Assembly: GCA_964399675.1 (NCBI GenBank)
Contig: CAYNRK010000004.1
Span: forward strand, 12,715-76,714
DNA length: 64,000 bases
Origin: an uncultured Gammaproteobacteria bacterium
GTDB taxonomy: Bacteria > Patescibacteriota > Patescibacteriia > UBA9934 > GWF2-40-263
Reading direction: 5' to 3'
Shown: positions 5,332 to 60,563 of the stretch, one piece after another
Layout: each line of letters begins with the position of its first letter
How positions within the stretch are numbered: position 1 is the stretch's first letter
Position numbers and translations under genes: made by a program
Notes under the pieces: model-generated
Seen by the model: the letters and a program-made list of their open reading frames with translations, nothing else
What the model was told of the DNA's origin: nothing
The model's database searches: none

Positions 5332-5368
5332 AAGAGCTAATGAATCAGGATTAAACCAATATGATATA

Positions 5369-5413
5369 AAATTACTTATACCAACCGTGACGATCGTCAG
5401 TTATGGTATAAGT
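5369..5413. repeat. 44-bp perfect hairpin (cttatacca..tgacgatcgtca..tggtataag), copy 1
   Basis: Nested palindrome. Near-identical copies at 5948..5992 and 54185..54236. Confidence 0.8.
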
Positions 5414-5441
5414 AATTATTATCAATTCCGTAGTTTGAAAT

Positions 5442-5948
5442 ATGTCAGCTGATAAAAAACAACAAAAGCAAATCTCAAATCTTCTTGGTAAAATCAATAA
5501 CGAAGTGAACGCGTTGTTTTCAGCAAATTGGTCATATTGCGACAGGCGTCAGTGGATTGATATATCTGACGAAGACAAGGAAAGAATTTATCAATACAGA
5601 CGACTTCAGTATTTAAAAAGAAAAAAATGGATAAAAATTAAAAAAACTGAAGAGGGATTGCTTTGTTCATTAACTCAAGTAGGAAAGAAAGAATTACAAA
5701 GACGAGAAATTATTAAGAAAAAAGAAAAATTACCTGCAGGCCAAAAATGTCTTGTGATGTTTGACATTCCTGAAGATGCACGGTCGGGCAGACACGCACT
5801 TCGCCAGTTTCTTAAAAACGCTGACTTTAAAAGAATTCAACTCAGTGTTTGGGAAAGCGATCGTGATATTGGTGAGGAGGTGAAGAAATTTATAAAAAGA
5901 GCCGGTGTCAGCAAGTGGGTAATTGTGTTCGTTGGAAAGAAGTTATAA
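5442..5948 (+). CDS. hypothetical protein with C-terminal Cas2/VapD-like segment
   Basis: C-terminal CLVMFDIPEDARSGRHALRQFLKNADFKRIQLSVWES follows the Cas2 pattern hhhhYDI..R..L...G.R.Q.SVFE. No cas1 or CRISPR array in the window. Confidence 0.4.
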   Translation: MSADKKQQKQISNLLGKINNEVNALFSANWSYCDRRQWIDISDEDKERIYQYRRLQYLKRKKWIKIKKTEEGLLCSLTQVGKKELQRREIIKKKEKLPAGQKCLVMFDIPEDARSGRHALRQFLKNADFKRIQLSVWESDRDIGEEVKKFIKRAGVSKWVIVFVGKKL

Positions 5949-5992
5949 AACTTATACCAACCGTGACGATCGTCAATTATGGTATAAGTATT
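5948..5992. repeat. 44-bp perfect hairpin, copy 2 (direct repeat of 5369..5413)
   Basis: Sequence identity to copy 1 except one base in the loop. Confidence 0.8.
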
Positions 5993-6064
5993 TTTTTGAA
6001 ATTTTTTGGAGTGTTTTAGTTCTGTAACAAATTTATTCAGAGATTACAGTATTGATTGTCTTAG

Positions 6065-8743: not shown

Positions 8744-8945
8744 CTCATCTTGCGTCGTTGCGAGGAGCGAAGCGACGAAGCAATCTCCGTGTTATTATGT
8801 CATCCCGACCGAGCGAAGCGAGCGGAGGGATCTCGCATATTCGAGATCTCTCCGTGCGCTCGCTTTGCTCGTTTAGTCGAGATGACAAAGCATGACTACA
8901 CGGAGATTGCTTCGTCAGTCGGCTTCGCCTCCTTCCTCGCAAAGA
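8744..8945. repeat. family-A nested palindromic element
   Basis: Same four modules as 2614..2853, almost base-for-base. Confidence 0.85.
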
Positions 8946-12442: not shown

Positions 12443-13270
12443 ATGGAATTTGATTATTTTTTATACAATAAAAAAATTTTACCAATTTCAAAAGCGGTCG
12501 TTTCATTGTTTGATATTGAATATGCTTATGGATTCGGTGTTTACGAATCAGTTCGCGTTTCTAAAGGAGCAGTAAATTTTATTGATGACCATATTGAACG
12601 ATTGATTGAATCAGCAAAGGTAATCGGTTTAAAACACAACTTTTCGCAACCAGTGATTGAAAAAGGAATTTTGGGTTTAGTTGCGAAAACCCAATCACCA
12701 TCTTTCAACATAAAAATATTATTGATTGGTGCATCTGAAAAAGAGGATGCATCATTATTTGCTTTGTGTTTAAATCCATTTTTCCTTGATAAGAAATTAT
12801 ACAAAAATGGAGCTGACTTTATTACTTATAATCACGAAAGGGTTTTTCCTCATGCAAAAAGTTTGAACATGCTCCCAAGTTATGTCGCATATAAAAAAGC
12901 TAAGAGGGCTGGTGCTTATGATGCATTATTGATTAATCGGAATGGATTTATTACAGAAGGAACAAGAACAAATTTTTTCTGCATAAAAGACAAAATCATT
13001 TACACACCTCCGGATAAAGAAGTCTTGCTTGGTGTGACAAGAAAAGCATTGTTTAAAGTTGCTCAATTAAATGATTATGAAATCATTCAAAAGAATATCA
13101 GGTTTAGCGATGTTAAAAATTATGAAAATGCATTTGTATCTAGTACTTCAGCAAAAATCCTACCAATAAAAAAAATCAACACAACAATTTTTCAATCACC
13201 ATCAGAAGATCTTAAAAAGTTAATGAATTTGTTTGATGATTTTTTAACGAAGTGCAATGGAAAAATTTGA
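12443..13270 (+). CDS. class IV aminotransferase (D-amino acid / branched-chain type)
   Basis: Fold-type IV pattern (..YGFGVYESVRV.., ..EGTRTNFF..). Adjacent to murD, so a plausible D-Glu/D-Ala supplier. Confidence 0.6.
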   Translation: MEFDYFLYNKKILPISKAVVSLFDIEYAYGFGVYESVRVSKGAVNFIDDHIERLIESAKVIGLKHNFSQPVIEKGILGLVAKTQSPSFNIKILLIGASEKEDASLFALCLNPFFLDKKLYKNGADFITYNHERVFPHAKSLNMLPSYVAYKKAKRAGAYDALLINRNGFITEGTRTNFFCIKDKIIYTPPDKEVLLGVTRKALFKVAQLNDYEIIQKNIRFSDVKNYENAFVSSTSAKILPIKKINTTIFQSPSEDLKKLMNLFDDFLTKCNGKI

Positions 13271-22505: not shown

Positions 22506-22612
22506 TTGCTGTCATCCCGAGCGAAGGCCCGTCAGACGGGCCGAAGCCGAGGGATCTCGAATATTGCGAGATCTCTCCGCTCGCTTCGCTCGGTCGAGAT
22601 GACATCTAGTAT
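22505..22612. repeat. family-A palindromic element (modules 3 and 4 plus the ggcccgtcagacgggcc submodule)
   Basis: gtcatcccgagcgaag..gagggatctcgaatattgcgagatctctcc..tcgagatgac. Confidence 0.8.
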
Positions 22613-24460: not shown

Positions 24461-24639
24461 AAAAAATTTGAAATTCAAAAGGAGAATTATCAATAAAACT
24501 CAATGTTGTCAATAATACTCATTCAATTTGATTATATCATTGAATTCTCAGCTTAGATACACTCTGGCAATTAAGGAGGTTCAAACGACTAAAACAAAAA
24601 CACCTTCAATTACAGCAAGGGTTTGTTGAGAACAAAAGA

Positions 24640-24690
24640 ATATACTTATAAAATACTTCGCGATCGCGAAGTATTTTATAACAACTTTTC
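24640..24690. terminator. perfect palindrome tacttataaaatacttcgcgatcgcgaagtattttataa (bidirectional terminator-like)
   Basis: Member of the TACTTATA..CGATCG..TATAAGTA hairpin family. Confidence 0.6.
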
Positions 24691-24776
24691 AAAAAGAAAA
24701 GCCGCCTGTACAAGAACGGAAACGTATCGGCATTTGAGTTATGCAAACAGTTTTTCTTGTATGGCGGTTGAGCAGC

Positions 24777-27477: not shown

Positions 27478-27605
27478 TTCCTTTGTCATCCCGAGCGAGC
27501 CCATTCGACTCACTTCGTTCGCTCAGGGCAGGCTCCGCGAGCCGAGGGATCTCGTATATTCGAGATCTCTCCGCTCGGCTGACGCCTCGGTCGAGATGAC
27601 ATTAG
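27478..27605. repeat. family-A palindromic element
   Basis: gtcatcccgagcgagcc..gagggatctcgtatattcgagatctctcc..tcgagatgac. Confidence 0.8.
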
Positions 27606-29677: not shown

Positions 29678-29732
29678 TTAAAAGACGGACATAAGGGTCT
29701 GTTTTTTGTTTGTGATATAATTATTCCTGTCA

Positions 29733-29885
29733 TCTCGACCAAGGCGTTACTTACCCTTGTCATCTCGACCAAGGTGCTACTTACCCTTGTCATCTCGACC
29801 AAGGTGCTACTTACCCTTGTCATCTCGACCAAGGTGCTACTTACCCTTGTCATCTCGACCGAGCGAAGCGAGCGGAGAGATCTTG
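29733..29885. repeat. tandem array of four and a half 30-bp units (ccttgtcatctcgaccaaggtgctacttac) running into a family-A module
   Basis: Direct tandem copies with no spacers. The unit equals the gtcatctcgacc end of family A. Confidence 0.85.
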
Positions 29886-29889
29886 CATT

Positions 29890-30180
29890 ATGGAAGAAAA
29901 ATTTTACTACATTTATATACTTACCAACTCCTCCGAGGCGGTTCTATATGTTGGAGTCACGAATAATTTGATTAGAAGAATGCATGAGCATCAAAATAAA
30001 CTGATAGAAGGTTTTACGAAAAAGTATAACTGTACGAAACTTATTTACTATGAGGTCACCAACGATGTGTACGCTGCGCTAGAAAGAGAAAAACAAATAA
30101 AAAAATGGAATAGAAAAAAGAAGGAACATCTTGTTAATTTAGATAATCCCGAGTGGAAAGACTTGTCAGTCGATTTTTGA
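29890..30180 (+). CDS. GIY-YIG nuclease domain protein (small stand-alone)
   Basis: FYYIYILTN..VLYVGVTNNLIRRMHEH is GIY-YIG with the conserved R and E. The start codon abuts the repeat. Confidence 0.75.
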   Translation: MEEKFYYIYILTNSSEAVLYVGVTNNLIRRMHEHQNKLIEGFTKKYNCTKLIYYEVTNDVYAALEREKQIKKWNRKKKEHLVNLDNPEWKDLSVDF

Positions 30181-30184
30181 TAAT

Positions 30185-30535
30185 TCGAGATTTCTCGCGT
30201 AAAGCGACGTGCCACGTAAAAGCTCAAGCACTCTACGTGGTGTGGTCGCCACGCGACTTTGCGTCGGCTTCGCTCGGGATGACAAAAAAGAAATAATTGT
30301 CATCTCGACCGGAGGCCCGTCAGACGGGCCGGAGCGGAGAGATCTCGAATATGCGAGATTTCTCCGCTCGCTGTGCTCGGTCGAAATGACATAATAATAA
30401 TTGGTCGAAATGACATGTATCGGTTGTCATCCCGAGCGAAGCCGAGGGATCTCGAATATTGGAACAACACGATTCGAGATTTCTCCGCTCGCTTCGCTCG
30501 GTCGAAATGACAGAAACGGCACTGACACATAGAAT
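30185..30535. repeat. cluster of family-A modules, including the cgcgtaaagcgacgtg..cacgcgactttgcg palindrome and three gtcat..gatctcgaatat..atgac units
   Basis: Read directly from the sequence. Confidence 0.85.
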
Positions 30536-35139: not shown

Positions 35140-35400
35140 CCACCCAGTGCGTCATTGCGAGGAGGTCAAAGGCCGACGAAGTCGAGCTCAGCTCGACGAA
35201 GCAATCTCCGTGTAGAGTCATACTTTGTCATCTCGACTAAGCGAGCAAAGCGAGCGCACGGAGAGATCTCGCATATTCGAGATCTCTCGCGTAAAGCGAC
35301 GTGGTCGCCACGCGACTTTACGTCGGCAAGCTCGAGATGACATAATAACACGGAGATTGCTTCGGCCCGTCTGACGGGCCTCGCAAAGACGCAAGTGAAC
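35140..35400. repeat. family-A module cluster
   Basis: gcgtcattgcgagg, the acgtaaagtcgcgtggcgaccacg palindrome, and gatctcgcatattcgagatc. Confidence 0.85.
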
Positions 35401-36014: not shown

Positions 36015-37666
36015 GCCAAACATTATATAGAAGATATCGACCGGAAAAGTTTAAGGATATTTCAGGTCAGGAACATGTTGTTAAAACCCTGCAGAATCAG
36101 CTAAAAGCTGGTTCTGTTGCTCATGCATATCTGTTTACAGGGCCACGTGGGATTGGGAAAACCACAATTGCGCGTTTGGTTGCAAAGGCTATTAATTGCG
36201 AGAAAGTAAAAGAAAGCGAGCCATGCGGAAAATGTTCGTCATGTACAGAGATTACTACTGGAAATGCGCTGGATGTTTTTGAGATTGACGCGGCATCTCA
36301 CACTGATGTTGAAAACGTTCGTGAGAACATTATTAAAAATGTTCGATTTGCACCAAACAAGTTGAATCGAAAAGTTTATATTATAGATGAGGTTCACATG
36401 CTTTCAACCTCTGCTTTTAACGCGCTGTTAAAAACACTTGAAGAACCCCCAGAGCACGCATTATTTATTCTTGCAACAACTGAGATTCATAAAGTTCCTG
36501 AGACGATTATTAGTCGTTGTCAGCGTTTTGATTTTGCAAGGATTGACAAAGCAGAGCTTGTTAAGCGAATGAAAAGGATTTTGAAAAAAGAAGGGGTGGT
36601 TGTGGCTGATGATGTGCTTGCAGAGATTGCACGACACAGCGGTGGATTTGCGCGCGATGCGGAAAGCATGCTTGGCCAAGTGCTGGCATTGGGAGAAAAG
36701 GAGATCAGTATGGATCAGGCAATGCTTGTGCTTCCGGCAACCACAGCAATTATTGTTGAACAATTTATTGATTCAATGTTTTCCAAAGGAGCAGGGGAGA
36801 CAATCAAGCTTTTGAATCAGAATCTTGAGCAGGGAGTTGACCTTAAACATTTTTTGGATGATGTTATTTCAAAGTTGCGCGACCAGCTTCTTGAAACTGT
36901 TTCAGAAGGAAAGGCTTTAGTTTCTGTTGATCAGCTTCGGTTTGCAATTGAGAAATTTTTAAAAGCCCGCAGACATATTAATGTTGATCACTTGCCACAG
37001 CTTCCGCTTGAATTGGCTATTGTGGAGATTGTAAGTGAAGGAGCCAGGGATCAGGAGCTGGCTGTCGGGAATAGCACATCTGCGTCATTGCGAGGAGCCG
37101 AGGGCGACGACGTAAAGTCGCGTGGCAACCACGTTGCTTTACGCAAAGCAGTCTCCGTGGAAAAAAAAATTGAAAAATCGGATTTTAAGAAACAGGAGGT
37201 TGATTTGGATATCCAAGAAACACAACCCCTGTCATCTCGACCGAGCGAAGCGAGCGGAGAGATCTCGCATATTCGAGATCTCCCGGCTTCGTCCAACAAC
37301 AGCGAGGCTTTGCTTGAGACAGTACAAGAGGAGACTGTGTTCGATTCCGTCCCAGTCATATCACTCGAGGAAGTCAAAGAAAAATGGCCAACCGTGTTTG
37401 AGCAAATTCAAGAGTGCAATGCATCCTTGCCGTTATTTATGGAGTCCTGTGAGATTTGTGGAGTAAAAGACGATCATGTTGAGCTTGCGTTTGAATACGA
37501 TTTGCACGTTCAGGCAGTGAACAAAGAAAAGAACCGTGTGTTAATTGAAAAGGTGTTGGAAAAGGTTTTGGGTAAGAAAGTTAAGGTGAGGGCTTTGAAA
37601 ACAGAAAAAAAGGAATCAGATTCGGTCAAAGATTTGCTTGAAGAGTTTGGTGGGAGTGTAGTGTAA
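36011..37666 (+). CDS. dnaX: DNA polymerase III subunit tau/gamma
   Basis: YRPEKF..GQEHVV..AYLFTGPRGIGKTT clamp-loader AAA+ module. Carries an in-frame family-A repeat insertion at 37075..37300. Confidence 0.9.
   Translation: MSQTLYRRYRPEKFKDISGQEHVVKTLQNQLKAGSVAHAYLFTGPRGIGKTTIARLVAKAINCEKVKESEPCGKCSSCTEITTGNALDVFEIDAASHTDVENVRENIIKNVRFAPNKLNRKVYIIDEVHMLSTSAFNALLKTLEEPPEHALFILATTEIHKVPETIISRCQRFDFARIDKAELVKRMKRILKKEGVVVADDVLAEIARHSGGFARDAESMLGQVLALGEKEISMDQAMLVLPATTAIIVEQFIDSMFSKGAGETIKLLNQNLEQGVDLKHFLDDVISKLRDQLLETVSEGKALVSVDQLRFAIEKFLKARRHINVDHLPQLPLELAIVEIVSEGARDQELAVGNSTSASLRGAEGDDVKSRGNHVALRKAVSVEKKIEKSDFKKQEVDLDIQETQPLSSRPSEASGEISHIRDLPASSNNSEALLETVQEETVFDSVPVISLEEVKEKWPTVFEQIQECNASLPLFMESCEICGVKDDHVELAFEYDLHVQAVNKEKNRVLIEKVLEKVLGKKVKVRALKTEKKESDSVKDLLEEFGGSVV
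37075..37300. repeat. family-A repeat inserted in frame inside dnaX (about 75 codons)
   Basis: gcgtcattgcgagg..acgtaaagtcgcgtggcaaccacg..gtcatctcgaccgagcgaagcgagcggagagatctcgcatattcgagatctc lies within the ORF and translates as ..SLRGAEGDDVKSRGNHVALR..SSRPSEASGEISHIRDL... Confidence 0.8.
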
Positions 37667-38085: not shown

Positions 38086-38142
38086 AAAAAATACTTATAA
38101 AATACTTCTCGATCGAGAAGTATTTTATAAGTATTTTTTTGG
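38086..38142. terminator. 54-bp perfect palindrome (A-tract tacttataaaatacttctcgatcgagaagtattttataagta T-tract)
   Basis: Bidirectional terminator-like. Same family as 24640..24690, 5369..5413 and 54185..54236. Confidence 0.7.
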
Positions 38143-39270: not shown

Positions 39271-39315
39271 CTCACCCTGCGGGGCGCCTACTCTAGGGCG
39301 CCCCGTGTTCGTTTT
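39271..39315. terminator. GC-rich hairpin cggggcgcc-tactcta-gggcgcccc followed by T-tract
   Basis: Bidirectional. Also the 3' end of the minus-strand RimK-like gene. Confidence 0.7.
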
Positions 39316-40207
39316 AAAAATTTATTGAAAATTCGATTATTTTTTTGGCAATGTCTTTGCCGGTAACTTCCTCCAAGGCTTTAAATCCAGGATTGGCATT
39401 TACTTCCAAAACAAGCGGTCCACTTTCAGATCTAATAAGATCAACTCCTGCAATTTCAAGGTTAACTGATTTTGCAACTTTTACTGCAAGTTGTTTTTCC
39501 TGATCTGATAATTCAATTTCTTTTCCTGTTCCACCTGTTGAAGTGTTTGCTCTAATGTCTCCAGAAGACGCTGATCGTTCCATTGCGGCAATTACTTTAT
39601 TTCCAATCACAAACGCACGCACATCTTTTCTTTCTGCCTCTTTGACAAATCGTTGAACAATAATTGGATTGTGATCTCGGATTGCTAAGTATTCAGCAAT
39701 TGGCTGAAAAGTCTCTTTGTCTGGCGCATAAAATACACCCTTACCATGAGTTCCAAATGCAATTTTGATAATCACAGGAAAACCAAGTTGATTTGCAAAC
39801 ACTAAAGCTTGTTCAGGATTTTTTGTGATTGCTGATTCAGGATGAGGAATGTCATTATTTTGAAAATGTAGTAATTGTCTAATTTTGTTTTTTGATAAAC
39901 CAAGATGATGCTTGCTGTTTATCAATTTAAATCCAGATTGATTTAAATAATGAATCGGATGCATGTGCAAGCTTGGCTCTTCAATAAAGTTTGGTCTTGG
40001 AAGAATTACATCAAGTTTTGGAAGTGGTTTTCCATCATAAAGATAACCCCCCCTAACCCCCCCTTGAAAGGGGGGGGAACAAAACAAAAAGTTTGGTTCG
40101 TACAATCGAACTGTTTCATGTCCAAGCTCTTTTGCAGCTTCTTCAAGTCGATCAACACTTGAATATTGCTCCCAGGATTGTTTTGAAATAAGAATTCCAA
40201 TTTTCAT
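39314..40207 (-). CDS. RimK-family ATP-grasp ligase (alpha-L-glutamate ligase-like)
   Basis: ATP-grasp C-terminal half (..AGVDLIRSESGPLVLEVNANPGF..). Contains an in-frame family-C element (..[12 protein letters not shown]..). The track N-terminus 40208..40321 is read-through of a family-A repeat. Confidence 0.7.
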   Translation of the reverse strand: MKIGILISKQSWEQYSSVDRLEEAAKELGHETVRLYEPNFLFCSPPFQGGVRGGYLYDGKPLPKLDVILPRPNFIEEPSLHMHPIHYLNQSGFKLINSKHHLGLSKNKIRQLLHFQNNDIPHPESAITKNPEQALVFANQLGFPVIIKIAFGTHGKGVFYAPDKETFQPIAEYLAIRDHNPIIVQRFVKEAERKDVRAFVIGNKVIAAMERSASSGDIRANTSTGGTGKEIELSDQEKQLAVKVAKSVNLEIAGVDLIRSESGPLVLEVNANPGFKALEEVTGKDIAKKIIEFSINF

Positions 40208-40325
40208 ATTATTTCTATATGTCATCTCGACCGGAGACCCGTCTGACGGGCCGGAGCGGAGAGATCTCGAACACGAATATGCGAGATCCCTCGACTCACT
40301 GTCGTTCGCTCGGGATGACACAGTG
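40208..40325. repeat. family-A palindromic element
   Basis: gtcatctcgaccggagacccgtctgacgggccggagcggagagatctcgaacacgaatatgcgagatccctcg..gggatgac. Confidence 0.8.
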
Positions 40326-44032: not shown

Positions 44033-44130
44033 TCACCCCCCTCTTTTTGCGTCTTTGCGAGCCCCCTTTCGCGGAAAGGGGCGAAGCCCGTCCGAACGGC
44101 CGCAAGGCCGGGCGGGCAATCTCCGTTGAG
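44033..44130. repeat. GC-rich family-A variant (gcgtctttgcgagccccctttcgcggaaaggggcgaagcccgtccgaacgg..)
   Basis: Module 1 plus a cccctttcgcggaaagggg hairpin. Confidence 0.6.
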
Positions 44131-44245
44131 AACTATGTAGGACAGTCACGTTGTATAATTTCGGCAGACTCGCTTCGCTCGTGCTGGCGAAATTATACAA
44201 TATACCTGTTGATGGCGTCCTGGAGGTTCGTTGGAGGATTGTGGG
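44131..44245 (+). repeat. family-B repeat (about 110 bp), copy 1
   Basis: gacagtcacgttgtataatttcggcag..ctggcgaaattatacaa..cctgttgatgg..ttcgttggaggattgtg. Near-identical to 45412..45530 and 56521..56635. Confidence 0.85.
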
Positions 44246-44462: not shown

Positions 44463-45296
44463 CTAGGCCGCGAGCGGGAAGCGGTCGTGAAGGAGCTTCA
44501 TGGCGTTGAGCCCGATGAGTGCGGCTTCTTCGTCGCCGGTGACCTCGAACGTGTTGGTCTGGCGATTGCCGTAGATGGCGTTGACCGAGCCGGCCCAGTA
44601 GCCGCCATGGGTCATGCACCAGACGTAGATCGTTGCCGACTCCATGGAGTAGAGCAATACACCGCGTTGGGTCAGCTCGTCGTGGAGCATTTGCAAGCGC
44701 GGAGGGATGTAGCCCATGTCGTCCGGTCGTGCCTGGCCTTCGTTGAAGCACGTGGTTGTTGCCTCAATGCCGACGTGGTGCGGCAGGCTGAGAGTCTCGG
44801 CAGCCTCGATGAGCGCAGCGATCACTCGGTGGTCAGCGAATGCAGGATACTCGATCGGCGCCCAGTTGGTGCTGGCGCCATCCAGTCGAACAGCCCCGCT
44901 TGCGATGGCTGATTCACCGACGTTCGGCTCTCTCTGGAGCGTGGAGCATGAGCCCACACGGATAAAGCGCTCTGCTCCCGAACGCACTGCCTCGGGCAGC
45001 ACAATGCCCGTGGATGCGCTGCCCATGCCGGTTGTGACCACAGACATGGGAACGCCCTGGAATTCGCCGGTGAAGCTCCTGAGCCCCCGGTGATCACCGA
45101 CCTTGATCGCCCCGGGACCGAAGAAGCGGCTCACCAACTCCTCAGCATCCTTGATCGGATCTGTTCCGGCGATCAGCTCTGCCCGTTCGGGTGAGCCCAC
45201 CAACAGGCAGTGGGGCGCCAGATCGTGTGCGTCTGTGTGGAGATGGTATTGCTTGCCACCTGCAGAGGTTGGGGCGTCAGCCTTTCTATCGCTCAT
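44463..45296 (-). CDS. nucleoside phosphorylase, PNP/UDP family 1 (purine/uridine phosphorylase-like), GC-rich island
   Basis: ..HCLLVGSPERAELIAG.. N-terminal fold and ..TGMGSASTGIVLPE.. segment typical of PNP_UDP_1. Confidence 0.7.
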   Translation of the reverse strand: MSDRKADAPTSAGGKQYHLHTDAHDLAPHCLLVGSPERAELIAGTDPIKDAEELVSRFFGPGAIKVGDHRGLRSFTGEFQGVPMSVVTTGMGSASTGIVLPEAVRSGAERFIRVGSCSTLQREPNVGESAIASGAVRLDGASTNWAPIEYPAFADHRVIAALIEAAETLSLPHHVGIEATTTCFNEGQARPDDMGYIPPRLQMLHDELTQRGVLLYSMESATIYVWCMTHGGYWAGSVNAIYGNRQTNTFEVTGDEEAALIGLNAMKLLHDRFPLAA

Positions 45297-45411
45297 GAAA
45301 CCCTCCTGGTTTCGCAGAGGTTCAAAAACAAAAACCGTTCGTATATTTACAACGGTTTAAGTGTTCTGTCAACCATGTCGCTTTATACGAAGCAATCTCC
45401 GGGAGACTTTT

Positions 45412-45530
45412 GGGGGACAGTCACGTTGTATAATTTCGGCAGACTCGCTTCGCTCGTGCTGGCGAAATTATACAACGTACCTGTTGATGGTGGCTTGGGG
45501 GTTCGTTGGAGGATTGTGTGAGTGCGGGTG
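45412..45530 (+). repeat. family-B repeat, copy 2 (direct repeat of copy 1)
   Basis: Over 90% identity by eye. Confidence 0.85.
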
Positions 45531-45576: not shown

Positions 45577-47433
45577 ATGACCGATCAAAAGCAAATTCGG
45601 AATTTTTGCATTATTGCACACATTGATCATGGTAAGTCGACCCTTTCGGATCGGCTTCTTGAATTTACCGGCACAGTTGAAAAGAGAAAAATGCAAAATC
45701 AGATTTTGGATACAATGGAGCTGGAAAGGGAGAAAGGAATTACAATAAAGCTTGCGCCGGCAAGGATGGAGTATGACTACACACCAATAACCCCCCCTAA
45801 CCCCCCCTTGAAAAGGGGGGGAACTTACGTTCTCAATCTAATTGATACTCCGGGTCATGTTGATTTTAATTATGAAGTTTCTCGATCATTGGCAGCTGTT
45901 GAGGGCGCAATACTTTTAGTTGATGCAACTCAAGGTGTGCAAGCGCAAACCATTGCAAATCTTTTTTTGGCCATTGAAGAGGATTTAGAAATTATCCCTG
46001 TTCTTAATAAGATCGATCTTCCGGCAGCAGATGTTCCAGCACGAACAAAAGAAATTGTGAAACTTATTGGATGTGATCCAAAAGAGGTTTTGGCTGTAAG
46101 TGGAAAAACAGGCGAAGGTGTTGAAGCGCTTCTTGATGCAATTGTTAAGCGCATTCCAGCACCAAAAGGAAATACAGATGCGAATCCTCGAGCTTTGATT
46201 TTTGATTCTTTTTATGATGACTACCGTGGAGTCATGGCTTATATTCGCATGGTAGATGGTTTGCTTGAGAAAGGTTCAAAAATTGAAATGATTGGAACAA
46301 GTGCGCGCGCTGAAGTGTTGGAAATAGGGGCTGTTACTCCAAATGGACTAAAACCAAGTCCTGAATTTTCAACCGGGCAAATCGGTTATGTTGTCACAGG
46401 GCTTAAAGATATTTCCGCATGTCGAGTTGGTGATACTATAACTTCGGGAACCCCCCCTAACCCCCCCTTGAAAAGGGGGGGAACGTCACCGCTTCCGGGC
46501 TATAAAGATGTAAAGCCAATGGTTTTTGCTGGAATGTTTCCGCAAGAAGGTAATGACTTTCAAAAGTTAAGAGAAGCAATTGAAAGGCTAAAATTAAATG
46601 ATTCAGCGTTGATTTATGAACCAGAACACTCACCGGCGCTTGGTTATGGATTTCGGTGTGGGCTTTTGGGAATGTTGCATTTGGAGATTTTAAAAGAACG
46701 ACTTGAGCGTGAGTTTAATTTGGAACTTGTTGTTACTGTTCCATCAGTTGCGTATCAGGTTCATCAGCGTTCCAAAGAAATGATTATAATCAAGAGTCCG
46801 CTTGATCTTCCGGATCCGTCACATATTGATTTTATTGAAGAGCCATGGGTAAAATTAGATATTGTTACACCAACGGATTATGTTGGTGCTGTAATGCAGT
46901 TGGTGCAGGATAGGCGCGGTACTTACAAGAACACAGAATACCTTTCTGAGAATCGGGCGATTTTGCATTACGAGATTCCGCTTTCAATGATCATTGTTGA
47001 TTTTTACGATAAACTTAAAGGAGTAACAGCCGGATACGCATCAATGAATTATGAGGTCATTGATTATCGTGAAGCAAATGTTGTGCGTATGAATATTTTA
47101 GTGGCTGAGGATACTGTTGATGCGTTTGCTACACTTGTCTATCGAGATGAGGCGGATAAGGCTGGACGGAGAATTGTGAAGTCACTTAAAGAATCAATTC
47201 CGCGAGCAAACTTTGTAATCAAACTGCAAGCCGCTGTTGGTGGTAAGATTGTTGCAAGTGAAAGAATTTCCGCAGTTCGAAAAGACGTGACTGCAAATTT
47301 GTATGGAGGTGACGTAACACGGAAGCGCAAACTGCTTGAAAAGCAAAAGAAAGGAAAAGCTAAAATGCTAGCTCATGGAAAAGGAAAGGTAAATATTCCA
47401 ACGAATGCATATTTGAATGTTTTAAAAAGATAG
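45577..47433 (+). CDS. lepA: elongation factor 4
   Basis: FCIIAHIDHGKSTLSDRLL G1 motif and LepA-specific C-terminal domain. Two in-frame family-C insertions (PPNPPLKRGGT) at 45789..45825 and 46449..46485. Confidence 0.9.
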   Translation: MTDQKQIRNFCIIAHIDHGKSTLSDRLLEFTGTVEKRKMQNQILDTMELEREKGITIKLAPARMEYDYTPITPPNPPLKRGGTYVLNLIDTPGHVDFNYEVSRSLAAVEGAILLVDATQGVQAQTIANLFLAIEEDLEIIPVLNKIDLPAADVPARTKEIVKLIGCDPKEVLAVSGKTGEGVEALLDAIVKRIPAPKGNTDANPRALIFDSFYDDYRGVMAYIRMVDGLLEKGSKIEMIGTSARAEVLEIGAVTPNGLKPSPEFSTGQIGYVVTGLKDISACRVGDTITSGTPPNPPLKRGGTSPLPGYKDVKPMVFAGMFPQEGNDFQKLREAIERLKLNDSALIYEPEHSPALGYGFRCGLLGMLHLEILKERLEREFNLELVVTVPSVAYQVHQRSKEMIIIKSPLDLPDPSHIDFIEEPWVKLDIVTPTDYVGAVMQLVQDRRGTYKNTEYLSENRAILHYEIPLSMIIVDFYDKLKGVTAGYASMNYEVIDYREANVVRMNILVAEDTVDAFATLVYRDEADKAGRRIVKSLKESIPRANFVIKLQAAVGGKIVASERISAVRKDVTANLYGGDVTRKRKLLEKQKKGKAKMLAHGKGKVNIPTNAYLNVLKR

Positions 47434-47534
47434 TATGAAAAAGAAAACAAAGTTCCGAATCTTTTGGGGTGTTGTTGGGGGAATGGTGATCATCAGCATG
47501 GTCATGTTTACGGTTGCTATTGGTTTTGGGCTCT

Positions 47535-47615
47535 AGTTGTCATCCCGAGCGAGGCGCAGCCAAGCCGAGGGATCTCGCATATTCGAGATTTCTCCGCTCG
47601 CTGTGCTCGGTCGAA
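47535..47615. repeat. family-A palindromic element
   Basis: gtcatcccgagcgaggcgcagccaagccgagggatctcgcatattcgagatttctcc..tcgaaatgac. Confidence 0.8.
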
Positions 47616-49355
47616 ATGACAAAAAGAATGCAGTGGCGTGTTGCTGAGAAAATTTTAGAGGAAATCAAAAAACAGTTTCCGGAGATTGATCCGGCTGTTT
47701 TGCAATTATTGTTTAATCGCAACATTAAAACACAAGAAGAGATTGATGTTTATTTAAGTCCGGATTGGAGCCGAGACACTTTTTCACCTCATCTGTTTAA
47801 CAACATGAGTGAGGCGATCAAAAGAGTGTTTGATTCACTTGAGGCCGGTGATGTTATTACTGTTCATGGAGATTATGATGCAGACGGCGTATGCGCTTCG
47901 GCAATTCTAATATCAACACTTAAAGAAATTTGTCGAGAATTTGATTTTGATAAATTAAAAATCACTTCATATATTCCGCATCGCGAAAAAGAGGGTTATG
48001 GCATGTCTGTGGAAACGATTGAGCATCTTCATGAACACGACAAGACAAAACTTGTAATTGCTGTTGATTGCGGAATTAGCAACAAGCCGGCGGTTGATCG
48101 CGGAAAAGAACAGGGAATGGATACGATTATTTGTGATCACCACACAATGCCGGAAGAATTACCTGATCAAGCAATTCTGATTCATCCGTTGGTTCCAGGT
48201 GAAAAGTTTCCAAACAAGCATCTTTGTGGCACAAGTGTGGCGTTTAAGCTTGCAAGCGCTTTGTTGGATGAGGCGCGAACACGCGGGGCATCGTTTCCGG
48301 CGGGTTATGAAAAGTGGCTTTTAGATTTGGTTGCAATCGCAACTGTGACAGATGTTATGCCGCTAACAGGAGAGAATCGTGTGCTTGAAAAGTATGGTCT
48401 TTTGGTTTTGAATAAAACACGAAGAAAAGGCATTCAGAAACTTATTGATATTGCAGGTTCAAAAAAGGGCAAGCTTGATACTGTTTCGATTGGTTTCCAA
48501 CTTGGTCCTCGGATTAACGCAGCCGGAAGAATGACGCATGCCAATGAGGCGCTTGCGCTTATGGTTGAGGAAGATGATTTGCAAGCAACAAAGTTTGCAA
48601 TGCAATTGAATGATCGAAATAAAGAACGACAAGCAGCTTCTCAACAAATGTATTTGCAAGCAAAAAAACTTGTAAAAGACCCTGGCGATCAAAAGTTGTT
48701 GATTGTGTGTCAACAAGGTTGGCCAGCAGGGCTTGTGGGTTTGGTTGCCGGAAAGCTTGTGAATGAGTTTCATGTACCAACGTTTGTTGTTGGACAAGAT
48801 GGTGAAAAATTTGTTGGCTCAGGTAGGAGTATTAAAGGATTTGATATTACAAAGGCCATGCATGCAGCATCGGAACATCTTGATCGATTTGGTGGACATC
48901 CGGAAGCGTGCGGCTTTTCAACCACTGGTCAGGATCGATTTGAAAAAGCAAAAAGTGTAATGCTTGAATATGCTCAAACACAGATTAAAGATGAAATGCT
49001 TTTGCCAATCCTAAATATTGACGCAGAAATTGATTTTAAAGATGTTACATGGGATTTGCAAAAAGAGCTTGAAAAGTTTGAGCCATTTGGTAAGGGGAAT
49101 CCGCAGCCGATTTTTGCCAGCAAACAAGTTGAGGTTGTAGACAAAAGATATGTTGGGGCTGATGGAAAACATTTACGACTGACGGTTCGTTCACCGCGTG
49201 GTACCATAATGAAAATGATTGGGTTTCGATTTGGTGAAATGTTTGATCAACTCGAAATCGGAAAACCAATAGACGTTGCTTATGAGATTGGTGTTAATGA
49301 GTGGAATGGTAATAGGGAATTGCAATTAAAGATTGTGGATATTAAATTGAGGTAG
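47616..49355 (+). CDS. recJ: single-stranded-DNA-specific exonuclease
   Basis: DHH motifs (VHGDYDADGVCA; CDHH), DHHA1 and an OB-fold C-terminus. Track start 47514 is repeat read-through. Confidence 0.85.
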   Translation: MTKRMQWRVAEKILEEIKKQFPEIDPAVLQLLFNRNIKTQEEIDVYLSPDWSRDTFSPHLFNNMSEAIKRVFDSLEAGDVITVHGDYDADGVCASAILISTLKEICREFDFDKLKITSYIPHREKEGYGMSVETIEHLHEHDKTKLVIAVDCGISNKPAVDRGKEQGMDTIICDHHTMPEELPDQAILIHPLVPGEKFPNKHLCGTSVAFKLASALLDEARTRGASFPAGYEKWLLDLVAIATVTDVMPLTGENRVLEKYGLLVLNKTRRKGIQKLIDIAGSKKGKLDTVSIGFQLGPRINAAGRMTHANEALALMVEEDDLQATKFAMQLNDRNKERQAASQQMYLQAKKLVKDPGDQKLLIVCQQGWPAGLVGLVAGKLVNEFHVPTFVVGQDGEKFVGSGRSIKGFDITKAMHAASEHLDRFGGHPEACGFSTTGQDRFEKAKSVMLEYAQTQIKDEMLLPILNIDAEIDFKDVTWDLQKELEKFEPFGKGNPQPIFASKQVEVVDKRYVGADGKHLRLTVRSPRGTIMKMIGFRFGEMFDQLEIGKPIDVAYEIGVNEWNGNRELQLKIVDIKLR

Positions 49356-49378
49356 ATACCGAACGTCCCCCTTTTCAA

Positions 49379-49475
49379 GAAATACTAACCACCCCTAACC
49401 CCTCCTTGAAAAGGAGGGGAATAATGCATGTCGGTTGAAAGTTCTCCCCCTTTTTAAGGGGGAGTTAGAGGGGGT
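49379..49475. repeat. family-C palindromic element (aaccacccctaacccctccttgaaaaggaggggaa) plus second hairpin tctccccctttttaagggggag
   Basis: Direct repeat of 49852..49892. The same core sits in frame inside lepA, ligA, pilD and the RimK-like gene. Confidence 0.85.
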
Positions 49476-49488
49476 TATGATTTTGGAT

Positions 49489-49848
49489 ATGTATAACGAA
49501 CTTTTCAATAAAAAAGAAAAGAAAACTTTCAGACAAAAATTACGAACTGATCCAACAGCAGCAGAAAAACAGTTGTGGCCACATCTGCAAGGTAGACAAA
49601 TAGAAGGATTGAAGTTTCGGCGTCAGCATGGAATCGGAAAGTATGTCGTCGATTTCTATTGTCCTGAAATCAAACTTATTATAGAGGTTGATGGTGATTC
49701 ACATTTTGAACCTGGAGCTCAAGAAAAAGATGTTGAACGAGAGAGAAGTCTTATTAATAGTGGTTTTCGAGTTTTGCGCTTTACCGATCGTGACATTTTT
49801 GATTCGATGGAAGATGTGATTGAAATTATAAAATCAAATTTATACTAG
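49489..49848 (+). CDS. DUF559 / Vsr-like (PD-(D/E)xK fold) endonuclease-domain protein, copy 1
   Basis: ..KFRRQHGIGKYVVDFYCPEIKLIIEVDGDSH..RVLRF.. pattern of the very-short-patch-repair-like DUF559 family. Start set after the repeat-derived 18 codons. Confidence 0.7.
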   Translation: MYNELFNKKEKKTFRQKLRTDPTAAEKQLWPHLQGRQIEGLKFRRQHGIGKYVVDFYCPEIKLIIEVDGDSHFEPGAQEKDVERERSLINSGFRVLRFTDRDIFDSMEDVIEIIKSNLY

Positions 49849-49851
49849 AAA

Positions 49852-49892
49852 TACTAACCACCCCTAACCCCTCCTTGAAAAGGAGGGGAACT
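49852..49892. repeat. family-C palindromic element
   Basis: gaaatactaaccacccctaacccctccttgaaaaggaggggaa. Confidence 0.85.
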
Positions 49893-49903
49893 TTCCAAAA
49901 ACT

Positions 49904-51963: not shown

Positions 51964-52734
51964 ATGACACTCTTCATACTTTTTCTTTTAGGAATTTGTG
52001 TGGGGAGTTTTTTAAATGTTGCGATTTTTAGAGCGCATGAAGACGAGAAGTTGCGTGGGCGTTCAAAGTGCATGAAATGTGAGATTCCAATCGGTGCTAA
52101 AGATTTGGTGCCGGTTTTAAGCTACTTGTTGCTAAAAGGTAGGTGTAGAAATTGCAAACAAGTTTTCTCATGGCAATACCCAGCAGTTGAGCTTGCAACC
52201 GGATTGCTTTTTATAATTCCCCCCCTTATCAAGGGGGGGTTAGGGGGGGTTAGCTTTGATTTATTGCCGATCCTAATCCGCGACTGGGTTTTCATTTCTT
52301 TTCTAATAATCATTTTTGTTTACGATCTAAAGCACATGTTGATTTTGGATCGTTTTACAATTCCAGCAATGATATTTGCTTTGATCGCAAACCTTTGGAT
52401 TGGAATCATTCCAGCATGGTTATTGTTGCTTGGGGCAGTTGTGTTAGCAGGATTTTTTTACATTCAGTTTTTGATTTCAAAAGGCAAATGGATTGGAGGG
52501 GGAGATATTCGACTTGGAGCACTCATGGGATTTATGCTTGGACTCCAGTATGGATTGGTTGCTTTGTTTTTAGGATATGTATTTGGTGCTGTGTTTGGTT
52601 TGATTTTGATGGCGCTTAATAAAGCCAATAAAAAAACAATGATTCCTTTGGGAACATTTTTAACCATTTCAACGCTCATAACTCTTTTTTACGGGCACAA
52701 CATTCTTGATTGGTATTTAGGGTTTTTCGTCTGA
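51964..52734 (+). CDS. pilD: prepilin peptidase (A24 family)
   Basis: N-terminal CxxC..CxxC zinc module (CMKC..CRNC) and a polytopic A24 domain. In-frame family-C insertion at 52218..52253 (..PPLIKGGLGGV..). Confidence 0.8.
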   Translation: MTLFILFLLGICVGSFLNVAIFRAHEDEKLRGRSKCMKCEIPIGAKDLVPVLSYLLLKGRCRNCKQVFSWQYPAVELATGLLFIIPPLIKGGLGGVSFDLLPILIRDWVFISFLIIIFVYDLKHMLILDRFTIPAMIFALIANLWIGIIPAWLLLLGAVVLAGFFYIQFLISKGKWIGGGDIRLGALMGFMLGLQYGLVALFLGYVFGAVFGLILMALNKANKKTMIPLGTFLTISTLITLFYGHNILDWYLGFFV

Positions 52735-52740
52735 TACTGA

Positions 52741-52890
52741 ATGTCCCCCTTTTCAAGGGGGACTACAGGGGGTTAGCATTTCATAAGCATAACCACCCCT
52801 AACCCCTCCTTGAAAAGGAGGGGAATAATGCATGTCGGTTGAAAGTTCTCCCCCTTTTTAAGGGGGAGTTAGAGGGGGTTAGCATTTTGA
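52741..52890. repeat. family-C element cluster (gtcccccttttcaagggggac; aaccacccctaacccctccttgaaaaggaggggaa; tctccccctttttaagggggag)
   Basis: Paralogous to 49379..49475. Confidence 0.85.
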
Positions 52891-52892
52891 AT

Positions 52893-53252
52893 ATGTATAA
52901 CGAACTATTTAATAAAAAAGACAAGAAAACTTTTAGACAAAAATTACGTACTGATCCAACAGCAGCAGAAAAGTTGTTATGGTTGCATTTGCAGGGTAAG
53001 CAAATGGAAGGATTAAAGTTTCGGCGGCAGCACGGAATCGGAAAGTATGTCGTTGATTTCCATTGTCCTAAAATTAAACTTGTTATTGAGGTTGATGGTG
53101 ATTCGCATTTTGAATCAGGAGCTCAGCAAAAAGATTCCGAACGAGAGCAATATCTAATCAACAAAGGTCTTCGAGTTTTACGGTTTACTGATCGTGACAT
53201 TTTTGATTCGATGGAGGACGTTGTTGAAATTATTCAATCAAACTTATACTAA
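52893..53252 (+). CDS. DUF559 / Vsr-like endonuclease-domain protein, copy 2
   Basis: About 90% identical to copy 1 at protein level (alignment by eye). Confidence 0.7.
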   Translation: MYNELFNKKDKKTFRQKLRTDPTAAEKLLWLHLQGKQMEGLKFRRQHGIGKYVVDFHCPKIKLVIEVDGDSHFESGAQQKDSEREQYLINKGLRVLRFTDRDIFDSMEDVVEIIQSNLY

Positions 53253-53285
53253 CCACCCCTAACCCCTCCTTGAAAAGGAGGGGAA
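53245..53285. repeat. family-C palindromic element
   Basis: tactaaccacccctaacccctccttgaaaaggaggggaa. Confidence 0.85.
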
Positions 53286-53456
53286 GAATGCGAGATCTTC
53301 AATCAACTATTGACATTTTAGTCTTTTTTTGTTAATTTATTTTTCTCTTTGCCACAGTGTTTAGTGCACCAACTTGATGCCTTAAACGTTGTGGCAAAGG
53401 GCGCTGCTTGCGCATATCGCGTAGGAGTTTGTTGGTTGCCATGGCAAAGGAACACA

Positions 53457-54044
53457 ATGGCTGCAAGTATTGGTCAGGCATTGGAGCTCATGACAAAGCT
53501 CGCAACAGCAGTCCCGTGGGGCGAGCTGGACAAACAGTTCGTTCAAGGTCTCATCGCTGACCCAGAGATCGGTTCTGAGTTCGTCTACTTCCTTCGAAAC
53601 TGGGGCGGGTCGGTCGTCGGTGAGCAGATCATCGACCTCGAAGTCAATCCGTTCATTCCGGATGGTTCTGAGATCTGCCCCAAGGACCAGATCGACAGCA
53701 GCGTTTGCGGCAAGTTCATCTTCGACCCCGATCAGATCGAGCTACATCTCGATTCGGGTCAGGAAGACGAGGAGTCGATCCAAGGCTATGACCTGCGCAG
53801 AGCCCTTGAGGGTCAGCCGGTTTTGCCCGCACATGTTCTCGACTTCCTGCTCGAGAACCCGCACTTCATCCCGGAGAGCTGGGAGGACAAGGGGGTGTTC
53901 TTCTGGGGCACCATCTACCGCTGCTCGGGCGGCAGCCTGTATGTCCGTTGCCTCCGCTGGCGCGGTGCTAGGTGGTGCTGGCGCTACGGCTGGCTTGGCG
54001 ATCACTGGGGCTCCGACGATCCTGCTGCGGTTTCCGCAAGCTAG
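53457..54044 (+). CDS. hypothetical protein (GC-rich island)
   Basis: ORF in a roughly 60% GC block. Preceded by TTGACA-like promoter elements and a 5' hairpin ctttgccacag..ctgtggcaaag. Confidence 0.45.
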   Translation: MAASIGQALELMTKLATAVPWGELDKQFVQGLIADPEIGSEFVYFLRNWGGSVVGEQIIDLEVNPFIPDGSEICPKDQIDSSVCGKFIFDPDQIELHLDSGQEDEESIQGYDLRRALEGQPVLPAHVLDFLLENPHFIPESWEDKGVFFWGTIYRCSGGSLYVRCLRWRGARWCWRYGWLGDHWGSDDPAAVSAS

Positions 54045-54184
54045 GATCTGGGAATCTGGAGCTCTGGTTACTAAGCTCTTTGAACTCTTGACTCCTAGCT
54101 CTCAACGGCCAATCACACTCGTGAACGGTCGTTTTTCAATTTAATTATTGATTTTTAAATTATCGAAAAACTTTTTAGAAAAAA

Positions 54185-54236
54185 TACTTATACCATTCGT
54201 GACGATCGTCAGTTTTGGTATAAGTATTTTTTAGTA
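54185..54236. terminator. perfect hairpin acttatacca..tgacgatcgtca..tggtataagt flanked by A-tract and T-tract
   Basis: Third copy of the 5369/5948 element. Confidence 0.7.
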
Positions 54237-54323: not shown

Positions 54324-56348
<2,025 letters not shown>

Positions 56349-56379: not shown

Positions 56380-56520
56380 CTTCATCCTGTGTCATTGCTC
56401 TCCCCTGCGTCGTTGCGAGCCCCCTTTCGTGAAACGGGGCGAAGCAATCTCCGTAAAGAATTCCCTCGTGTCCTGCACCTTGTGTCATTGCGAGCGAAGC
56501 GAAGCAATCTTCGTAAAGAA
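56380..56520. repeat. family-A module cluster
   Basis: gtcattgc..gcgtcgttgcgagccccctttcgtgaaacggggcgaagcaatctccgt.. repeated twice. Confidence 0.8.
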
Positions 56521-56635
56521 TTATGGGGGACAGTCACGTTGTATATAATTTCGGCAGTACTCGCTTTGTTCCGTGCTGGCGAAATTATATACAACGTACC
56601 TGTTGATGGCAGACTGAGTGTTCGTCGGAGGATTG
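56521..56635 (+). repeat. family-B repeat, copy 3
   Basis: gacagtcacgttgtatataatttcggcag..ctggcgaaattatatacaa..cctgttgatgg..ttcgtcggaggattgtg. Confidence 0.8.
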
Positions 56636-56656
56636 TGGATTTTTTTAAATAGATTT

Positions 56657-60358: not shown

Positions 60359-60464
60359 ATCCCGCGCTCTAGGCGCGCGCCTTGGGTGCTGGAAATTTGT
60401 GAAGAGATGTGGCGAGTGGTATGACCAAGAGTCATCCGACTTGCCGCAACCTCTTCAGAAATTT

Positions 60465-60545
60465 CTCATGTCATCCCGAGCGAGCGCAGCGAGCCGAGGG
60501 ATCTCGCATATCCGAGATTTCTCCACTCGCTGCGCTCGGTCGAAA
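60465..60545. repeat. family-A palindromic element
   Basis: gtcatcccgagcgagcgcagcgagccgagggatctcgcatatccgagatttctcc..tcgaaatgac. Confidence 0.8.
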
Positions 60546-60563
60546 TGACAAGGAAGTAAGGAG

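Follow-up and report, generated by a model that had tools for sequence, protein, structure and literature searches.

How does a short G+C-rich repeat come to be read in frame within pilD, the gene of a conserved prepilin peptidase, and to what kind of element does this repeat belong? The question is raised by a 64,000-nt stretch of DNA (positions 12,715 to 76,714 of contig CAYNRK010000004.1, assembly GCA_964399675.1; hereafter the window) from a bacterium of the candidate phyla radiation (CPR). We consider it probable (about 0.8) that the element is one copy of a dispersed intrastrand-triplex repeat, read in frame in pilD, and that the repeat family is tied to genes encoding DUF559 proteins.

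The sequence cccccccttatcaagggggggttagggggggtta was found at 52219-52252 of the plus strand; the original prediction (52218-52253) was one base wider on each side. Our general triplex-motif detector assigned it a 9/3/9/3/9 geometry with 0 mismatches (Table 1), and the hairpin, the part of the motif that was modelled, had a folding energy of -10.6 kcal/mol as DNA (ViennaRNA). The copy differs at 1 of 34 positions from a repeat consensus common to copies in four other genes, and 22 of its 33 core bases are G or C, in a region of ~0.39-0.45 GC. As predicted, it is read without a stop as PPLIKGGLGGV, residues 86-96 of an intact 256-aa open reading frame (ORF), and this added Pro/Gly-rich segment follows the Cys4 N-terminal module of PilD and precedes its catalytic membrane domain. 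Pfam domains were matched on both sides of the insert, and the residues Cys36, Cys39, Cys61 and Cys64 as well as the catalytic Asp121 and Asp181 were invariant in 78 aligned sequences. In about 120 homologues the insert site is a loop with ~15-residue length variation. In an AlphaFold2 (AF2) model (predicted local distance difference test, pLDDT, 91.8), residues 86-96 prolong the hairpin made of helix 71-94 and helix 98-124, with a turn at 95-97. The peptide itself was present only in the same protein, and absent from 118 other PilD homologues.

The motif was inserted into the short loop that joins PilD membrane helices 2 and 3, or took the place of some of it; it is translated there as an 11-residue segment that leaves the conserved residues of the enzyme undamaged. 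It is read through because of its 33-nt length and its position in one of three stop-free phases, and PilD most likely tolerates it as a passenger that has no part in its function. The identical PilD protein was encoded on 16 contigs of independent groundwater metagenome assemblies (ENA, JGI, Logan), which rules out an assembly artefact; the nearest PilD homologues carry the names Candidatus Uhrbacteria or Patescibacteria.

A Hamming scan of the window with the consensus found 11 copies, compared with 0 in each of 20 shuffles, and the triplex-motif detector found 12, compared with 1 in total across 30 shuffles. All 12 are located in the 40-55 kb interval, with eight copies pointing one way and four the opposite way; the pilD copy is indeed a reverse-orientation copy of a dispersed repeat, as eight other copies run opposite to it. 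Five of the 12 are in frame within genes and the other seven surround two DUF559 genes. The five intragenic copies that had been announced were located in a RimK-like ATP-grasp gene, in lepA (two copies), in pilD and in ligA, in each case at permissive sites of conserved protein genes; all belong to subtype C7, in contrast to the motifs that surround the DUF559 genes, which are T-type or variants. Each of these five solo copies lies within 9.5 kb of a DUF559 gene, and five points placed at random in 64 kb would all come to lie in a 14.8-kb range with p~0.012 (hand calculation). No target-site duplication was found in the flanks of 41 copies, in which only a TT on the 5' side and an A on the 3' side are conserved. 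Homologues confirm that the peptides are additional: LepA homologues of 78-79% identity have neither insert (homologue string ARMEH-K-GYTLNLIDTPGH), and Aquifex LepA (2ywe) has 10 and 5 residues fewer at sites 1 and 2, respectively. Similarly, E. coli LigA (4glx) has 7 residues fewer at the ligA insert site, and the closest homologues of the RimK-like protein (58-60% identity) read C-GDE-LLYDG at a site where the window protein has a net gain of ~8 aa.

All copies are built alike: a 9-nt C-rich arm is followed by a loop of 3 nt, by a G-rich arm complementary to the first and again 9 nt long, by a TTA linker and by a further G-rich block, also of 9 nt. The element had been called a palindrome, which holds for the hairpin arms but does not describe the whole, as the extra G block follows the mirror rule of an intrastrand triplex. 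The arms of the pilD copy are homopolymers, and the rule is not readable from this copy alone; it is demonstrated by the family. A set of 459 unique C-rich hairpins was compiled from the window and from 120 loci elsewhere, among which 93 had one asymmetric T interruption, a third block with exactly one non-G and a fixed 3-nt linker. The non-G was at the mirror position in 88 of these 93 hairpins and at the direct-repeat position in none; the base at the mirror position was T in 60, A in 28 and never C. The rule was held by six different core classes, and the observed third-block bases fit the purine-motif code G.GC, T.AT and A.AT, antiparallel to the purine arm. Such a mirror repeat is not expected from ordinary duplication or inversion, and is exactly the code predicted for an antiparallel purine-motif triple helix. 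The covariation of the third block thus provides sequence-level evidence of selection on a DNA triple-helix fold.

By these sequence rules, the element is a class II purine-motif intrastrand triplex motif of the BoxC/PIT/TMECO kind, in a shorter, 33-nt version: stems are of at least 8 nt and G/C-rich, loops are of 1-6 nt, and the motif is multi-copy and over-represented relative to shuffles. Together with published data on TMECO oligonucleotides, the rules lead us to expect that the single strand folds as a triplex, with which a G-quadruplex may compete. A first reading of the element as a hairpin with a spare G block, engaged in alternative pairing or in a G-quadruplex, was dropped as the principal interpretation because the interruptions are placed as in a mirror and not as in a direct repeat.

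The two DUF559 genes of the window lie in cassettes of similar layout, one at the recJ|rnhA junction and one next to pilD (Table 1). The window DUF559 protein matched PF04480 with E=7.9e-32 (109.8 bits, for a cutoff of 20.6) and the closest solved structure, PDB 3hrl, at 4.5e-17; it is 37% identical to E. coli YcjD and is a small Vsr-like member of the PD-(D/E)XK nuclease superfamily. As paralogues the two genes are old, and they evolve under purifying selection (synonymous divergence dS 0.71, ratio of non-synonymous to synonymous divergence dN/dS 0.11). The 92 nt upstream of both (49386-49477 and 52790-52881), which comprise two motifs and the spacer TAATGCATGTCGGTTGAAAGT, are nevertheless 100% identical, suggesting gene conversion or a strong constraint on the motifs and spacer. 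The second gene ends in a TAA stop codon (53250-53252) that complements the TTA of loop2 in its downstream motif. The gene order recJ-rnhA-pilM...pilD-ligA-gatC-gatA is found in three syntenic relatives, which have a DUF559 gene at neither recJ|rnhA nor pilD|ligA. In one of them, L132, the recJ-rnhA gap is 3 nt and pilD overlaps ligA; likewise, recJ and rnhA are adjacent or overlapping in the two other relatives. The absence of DUF559 genes from both junctions in these relatives indicates that both ~550-bp cassettes are insertions. No triplex motif was detected in 8.8 kb of syntenic DNA of L132, the one relative with DNA. Between the second cassette and ligA, a GC-rich 231-aa ORF (53349-54044) without a Pfam match was observed; in relatives, either pilD directly adjoins ligA or another small gene occupies this place, which makes the ORF an insertion as well.

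Association of the motif with DUF559 genes, which the original prediction had missed, is not limited to the window. In a survey of the flanks of 72 distinct metagenomic DUF559 genes (42-57% identity), a motif was present within 150 nt upstream in 46 of 67, downstream in 43 of 66 and on at least one side in 50 of 61, compared with a background of 0.02 per flank; triplex motifs within this distance were ~35-fold over background. Convergent flanking motifs were inverted repeats of at least 90% identity in 10 of 21 pairs, compared with 4% of cross-locus pairs. The DUF559 family comprises 24,630 representative clusters at E<=1e-3, and the called ORF extends into motif-derived peptide in 48 of 144 cluster representatives, compared with ~7 in shuffles. 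At four of the 40 loci that carry the exact 34-mer, the repeat adjoins a DUF559 gene at 0-9 nt, and the DUF559 proteins at those loci are only 37-55% identical to that of the window. In E. coli K-12, TMECO no. 9 (1,351,239-1,351,204) lies 168 nt downstream of the DUF559 gene ycjD, the 3' end of which overlaps a degenerate motif. It was observed that the interval NC_000913.3 1351204-1351430 (L126) contains a partial duplication of the ycjD 3' end (GGAGACGGTGCTGGAGAATATTC...) between the stop-overlapping degenerate motif and TMECO no. 9, which fits local rearrangement at motifs. The subtype of solo motifs matched that of the DUF559 flanks at the same locus only modestly (identity 0.76 vs 0.64, n=18). 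A literature search on DUF559 with repeats, on ycjD and BoxC, and on citations of TMECO found no paper making the link; its coverage was incomplete and an earlier description is possible. In conclusion, the link between DUF559 and the repeats is well supported as an association; a role of DUF559 as mobiliser of the repeats would be a further step.

The exact 34-mer was found at loci of Uhrbacteria, Ignavibacteria, Thiomargarita, Nitrospinaceae, Cyanobacteria, Bacteroidota, Abditibacteriota and others; a scan of viral contigs gave no match and no sign of a phage vector. C7-type matches in other genomes were genuinely intragenic and in frame in 4 of 4 cases (a DHFR/RibD_C protein, DnaX, PilD and an Eco57I-like methylase). 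None of the T-type matches elsewhere was a genuine intragenic copy: most were in short open stretches, and the few inside long stop-to-stop ORFs either preceded the likely start or belonged to spurious antisense ORFs. The same protein loops were occupied repeatedly. PilD of locus L013 (50% identical; CCCCCCCTTTTCAAGGGGGGGTTAGGGGGGGTT) and of locus L127 (P0089; TCCCCCCTC type) have a motif of another subtype in the same loop, orientation and frame. LepA orthologues have motifs at site 1 (P0126, P0129, P0218) or at site 2 (P0122), and RimK orthologues P0277, P0272 and P0264 have them in the loop that carries the RimK-like insert of the window. At LepA site 2, the window and P0122 copies differ by a coordinated change in the three blocks (C/G/G to T/A/A), which keeps the triplet. 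Recurrence at the same loops reflects either frequent insertion with few tolerant loops, or targeting. Two observations were made on individual loci. L013 (CAYNCE010000009.1), labelled uncultured Gammaproteobacteria, is an AT-rich locus whose PilD shares 50% identity with the CPR protein and likewise has the C7 motif, and the taxonomic label of this metagenome-assembled genome (MAG) may be wrong. The Eco57I-like ORF of L017, a Synechococcales MAG, contains a triplex motif together with tandem in-frame repeats LPQGEGRMLPSPPAP (x3-4), suggesting that other short GC-rich repeats are also translated inside cyanobacterial genes.

The original prediction also held that the element is open in frames on both strands, as expected if selection removes frame-breaking copies. 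Three of the six phases of the 33-nt core contain no stop, two on the F strand and one on the complementary strand, and openness on both strands is thus correct. Selection did not fare as well: three open frames are fewer than the mean of 4.7-4.9 in composition-matched shuffles or 3.9 in random 33-mers of the window. The comparison of stop-free phases with those actually used gave the expected result, as all nine verified intragenic copies are in open phases (used 4, 1 and 4 times), but it is nearly tautological as a test of selection: an intact gene necessarily carries a stop-free phase, so phase usage is no evidence of anything more. The family shows no enrichment for open frames and no sign of selection for openness. 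Easy in-frame survival is due to the length of 33 nt (11 codons) and to the C/G runs, not to a designed coding capacity.

These results can be combined in a model in which the DUF559 protein would recognise or nick the folded motif, and thereby would promote the spread, maintenance or homogenisation of solo copies, by analogy with RAYT transposases and REP sequences. A more specific version, which we hold tentatively and at somewhat below even odds, is that DUF559 is the missing partner of the BoxC/PIT/TM repeats. Two flanking motifs and the gene would form autonomous cassettes of ~0.5 kb, the nuclease of which would recognise folded DNA and seed or homogenise solo 33-nt copies; in gene-dense CPR genomes these copies would survive mainly as in-frame 11-codon inserts in permissive loops. 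Several points weigh against these interpretations. We know of no biochemical activity of DUF559 on such motifs and, to our knowledge, there is no precedent for a lone 120-aa PD-(D/E)XK nuclease as a mobilising enzyme. The solo copies, C7, and the local DUF559 flanks, T-type, are mismatched in subtype. No empty-site pilD allele was found at the DNA level, as the protein is the same on all 16 contigs and the next homologue has only 67% identity. Net gains in the RimK-like protein, in LigA and at LepA site 2 are below 11 aa, which means replacement of some native codons, or ancestral loops that were shorter or different. Finally, the predicted folding of the 9-triplet version rests on sequence rules, and no stable in vivo triplex was detected by dimethyl sulfate (DMS) footprinting (Holder et al., PMC4666352).

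Other explanations were considered for the presence of the repeat in pilD. One is a phase-variation switch, in which slippage in the C7/G7/G7 runs turns pilD, and with it the type IV pili, on and off. The homopolymer C7 subtype is that of all five intragenic copies, the intergenic copies being interrupted, and pilus genes are classic phase-variable loci. However, the same element is present in lepA (twice), in the rimK-like gene and in ligA, where switching off makes little sense, ligA being essential in model bacteria; moreover, 7-base runs are at the low end for efficient slippage and PilD is identical and in frame in 16 of 16 contigs from independent samples, all of which renders such a switch very unlikely. 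Nor do we give much credence to an RNA-level element, in which a 9-bp mRNA hairpin, kept for this reason, pauses ribosomes or stabilises the transcript. The hairpin is stable (~-10 kcal/mol, with DNA parameters) and motifs are found near the start and stop codons of DUF559 genes, but the verified intragenic copies include 5 that are sense and 4 that are antisense to transcription, and this lack of bias counts against a role of the RNA. In addition, the third block follows the purine-motif code, which does not form in RNA, and in E. coli PIT elements acted neither as promoters nor as terminators (Holder et al. 2015, PMC4666352). No Rfam family matched either: only tRNAs and chance miRNA matches were returned when the window was searched in full with gathering thresholds and its 49.3-55 kb part with E<=1.

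Co-option, meaning that a longer TM2-TM3 hairpin is useful to PilD, would explain why motifs are present in the same loop of three PilD lineages, L013 and L127 having other subtypes in the same frame, and would agree with the AF2 model, where the segment is a confident helix continuation. The same recurrence at LepA and RimK loops rather fits permissive sites that filter frequent insertions, most PilD homologues have short loops and the peptide is dictated by the DNA motif; we therefore regard co-option as improbable. An ordinary element of the REP/RAYT or MITE type, with a transposase elsewhere in the genome and incidental DUF559 adjacency, was also envisaged, as short GC-rich hairpin repeats are typically REPs and the window covers only 64 kb of the genome. 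A tblastn search of these 64 kb with E. coli RayT detected no RAYT homologue (best E = 0.28). No GTAG/CGTC tetranucleotide was evident by eye beside the aligned copies, the consensus of which ends TT...GGTTA, although no dedicated search was made. A mirror third block is not a REP feature and the excess of motifs next to DUF559 genes was seen at 72 independent loci, which leaves this explanation with a slender chance. Finally, the idea that the segment is native to the PilD loop, or an artefact of assembly or annotation, has only the variable length of the loop in its favour; it is contradicted by the 33/34 match to the consensus, by the three sources of the contigs and by the domains recognised on both sides, and is scarcely credible.

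If correct, the involvement of DUF559 would provide a function for a family of more than 24,000 protein clusters, and would explain repeats that have been known since the 1990s and for which the 2015 study found neither mobility gene nor function. Independently of the mechanism, the window adds three findings: this structural class colonises coding sequence in frame (lepA, ligA, pilD, rimK-like), repeatedly and in the same orthologue loops across lineages; the repeats show a systematic link to DUF559, a small-nuclease family of very large size that includes E. coli ycjD; and the DUF559-plus-motif cassettes behave as insertions. The pairing of ycjD with a TMECO brings the hypothesis into a model organism.

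Table 1. Positions, in the window, of the pilD triplex motif, of the other in-frame copies, of the DUF559 cassettes and of two other repeat families
Feature	Position	Strand	Remarks
Intrastrand triplex motif in pilD, 33 nt	52219..52251	+	codons 86-96, PPLIKGGLGGV; detector and string match
pilD copy, Y arm	52219-52227	+	CCCCCCCTT
pilD copy, loop1	52228-52230	+	ATC
pilD copy, R arm	52231-52239	+	AAGGGGGGG
pilD copy, loop2	52240-52242	+	TTA
pilD copy, reverse-Hoogsteen block	52243-52251	+	GGGGGGGTT
pilD, prepilin peptidase, 256 aa, intact host gene	51964..52734	+	Pfam A24_N_bact residues 8-85, Peptidase_A24 108-213
In-frame copy, RimK-like ATP-grasp gene (39314..40321, -)	40044..40077	-	second open phase of F strand
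In-frame copy 1, lepA (45577..47433, +)	45788..45821	-	complementary-strand reading, residues 72-83
In-frame copy 2, lepA	46448..46481	-	residues 292-303; absent in P0123-P0125; P0122 with different subtype there
In-frame copy, ligA (54336..56348, +)	54814..54847	-	+7 aa vs E. coli LigA 4glx
DUF559 cassette 1, fills recJ|rnhA junction	49356..49903	+	repeat comparison, motif detector, relatives' synteny
Cassette 1, truncated motif	49365-49379		
Cassette 1, T-type motif, upstream	49387-49419	-	
Cassette 1, F' motif	49444-49476	+	
Cassette 1, DUF559 gene	49489-49848		
Cassette 1, T-type motif, downstream	49856-49888	-	
DUF559 cassette 2, directly 3' of pilD stop codon	52735..53283	+	PF04480 match, motif detector
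Cassette 2, first motif	52744-52774	+	
Cassette 2, T-type motif, upstream	52791-52823	-	
Cassette 2, F' motif	52848-52880	+	
Cassette 2, DUF559 gene	52893-53252		
Cassette 2, T-type motif, downstream	53251-53283	-	
~70-85-nt palindrome copies	2694-2762, 8792-8860, 22510-22608, 27511-27581, 29842-29910, 30298-30397		
~70-85-nt palindrome copies, continued	30418-30516, 35228-35298, 37224-37294, 40220-40302, 47531-47625, 60462-60554		
~54-nt palindrome copies	5368-5421, 5944-5997, 24638-24691, 38087-38140, 54180-54233		

The window contains other repeats. A second, unrelated family consists of palindromes of ~70-85 nt (TGTCATCCCGAGCGAGCG..GGGATCTCGCATATTCGAGATCTCTCC..CGCTCGGTCGAAATGACA), with at least 10 copies across the whole window, which are sometimes read into the 5' ends of called ORFs, as in the rimK-like ORF, where they make up the first ~38 codons, and at the start of recJ. 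The head of this long palindromic family, TGTCATCTCGACC, is also present in a tandem array at 29718-29867, made of 4-5 copies of the 30-nt unit TACTTACCCTTGTCATCTCGACCAAGGTGC. Members of a third family are AT-rich perfect palindromes of ~54 nt with a CGATCG centre (ACTTATACC..CGTGACGATCGTCA..GGTATAAGT), all of them apparently intergenic. Lastly, two 116-nt direct repeats (44128-44243 and 45403-45518, 91% identical) bracket an island of high GC content (0.52, vs ~0.40), which holds a 277-aa ORF (44463..45296, -) and looks like a separately acquired cassette; a third, partial copy of the 116-nt repeat is located at 56504-56637, after ligA.

Among known systems, the Rickettsia palindromic elements (RPEs), reportedly described by Ogata and co-workers in 2000, are ~100-150 bp long and restricted to Rickettsia, and are not known to have a triplex architecture. 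A discussion of RPEs is given in PMC1779305 and PMC10969869. They share with the present family the behaviour of a selfish palindromic repeat that is in frame in housekeeping genes and adds a peptide at permissive sites, with function kept; the element described here differs by its length of 33-36 nt and by its presence in a CPR bacterium and in many other phyla. We know of no nuclease gene linked to RPEs. Transposable elements of the miniature inverted-repeat kind (MITEs) are likewise small non-autonomous repeats that can give codons to host genes, as do the Coxiella QMITEs (PMC5896051; review PMC10969869). They are, however, longer, with the terminal inverted repeats of a known insertion sequence (IS) family and usually with target-site duplications, none of which was seen here. 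The resemblance to repetitive extragenic palindromic (REP) sequences, to REPINs and to REP-associated tyrosine transposases (RAYTs) lies in short GC-rich hairpins, solo or in inverted doublets, and in a small gene, present once or a few times, that has repeats in inverted orientation on its flanks (PMC3116915, PMC3733652). The partner here is a DUF559 protein of the PD-(D/E)XK type and not a tyrosine transposase of the IS200/IS605 type (Bertels and Rainey 2011; Di Nocera et al. 2013), the element has an extra mirror block, and REPs are extragenic.

The closest relatives are the BoxC/PIT/TMECO repeats of E. coli. Class II intrastrand triplex motifs, which cover these repeats, were defined by Holder et al. 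2015 (Nucleic Acids Research, NAR 43:10126, PMC4666352), following earlier BoxC/PIT work (Bachellier et al., Hoyne/Maher, as cited in PMC4666352). The TMECO pattern is CCCTCNCCC N3-6 GGGNGAGGG N3 GGGNGAGGG, with TTA as second loop, and single-stranded TMECO oligonucleotides fold as a triplex, as determined by nuclear magnetic resonance (NMR) and circular dichroism (CD) (PMC4666352). Both kinds of element have a C-rich arm, a loop, a G-rich arm, a TTA loop ('type A') and a G-rich reverse-Hoogsteen block, with 9-nt stems and the same triplet code (G.GC, T.AT/A.AT), and both are multi-copy, in both orientations, sometimes in inverted pairs and in many phyla. The stem is CCCCCCCTT or CCCCTCCTT here and CCCTCNCCC in TMECO, so that the TMECO pattern is not matched although the class is the same. 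TMECOs were reported to be 'always located intergenically' in MG1655 (PMC4666352), whereas 5 of the 12 window copies are in frame inside genes. Finally, the 2015 study catalogued such repeats in hundreds of genomes and reported no mobility-related genes near TMECOs and no function (PMC4666352), whereas DUF559 genes are flanked by the motifs both in the window and at ycjD of E. coli.

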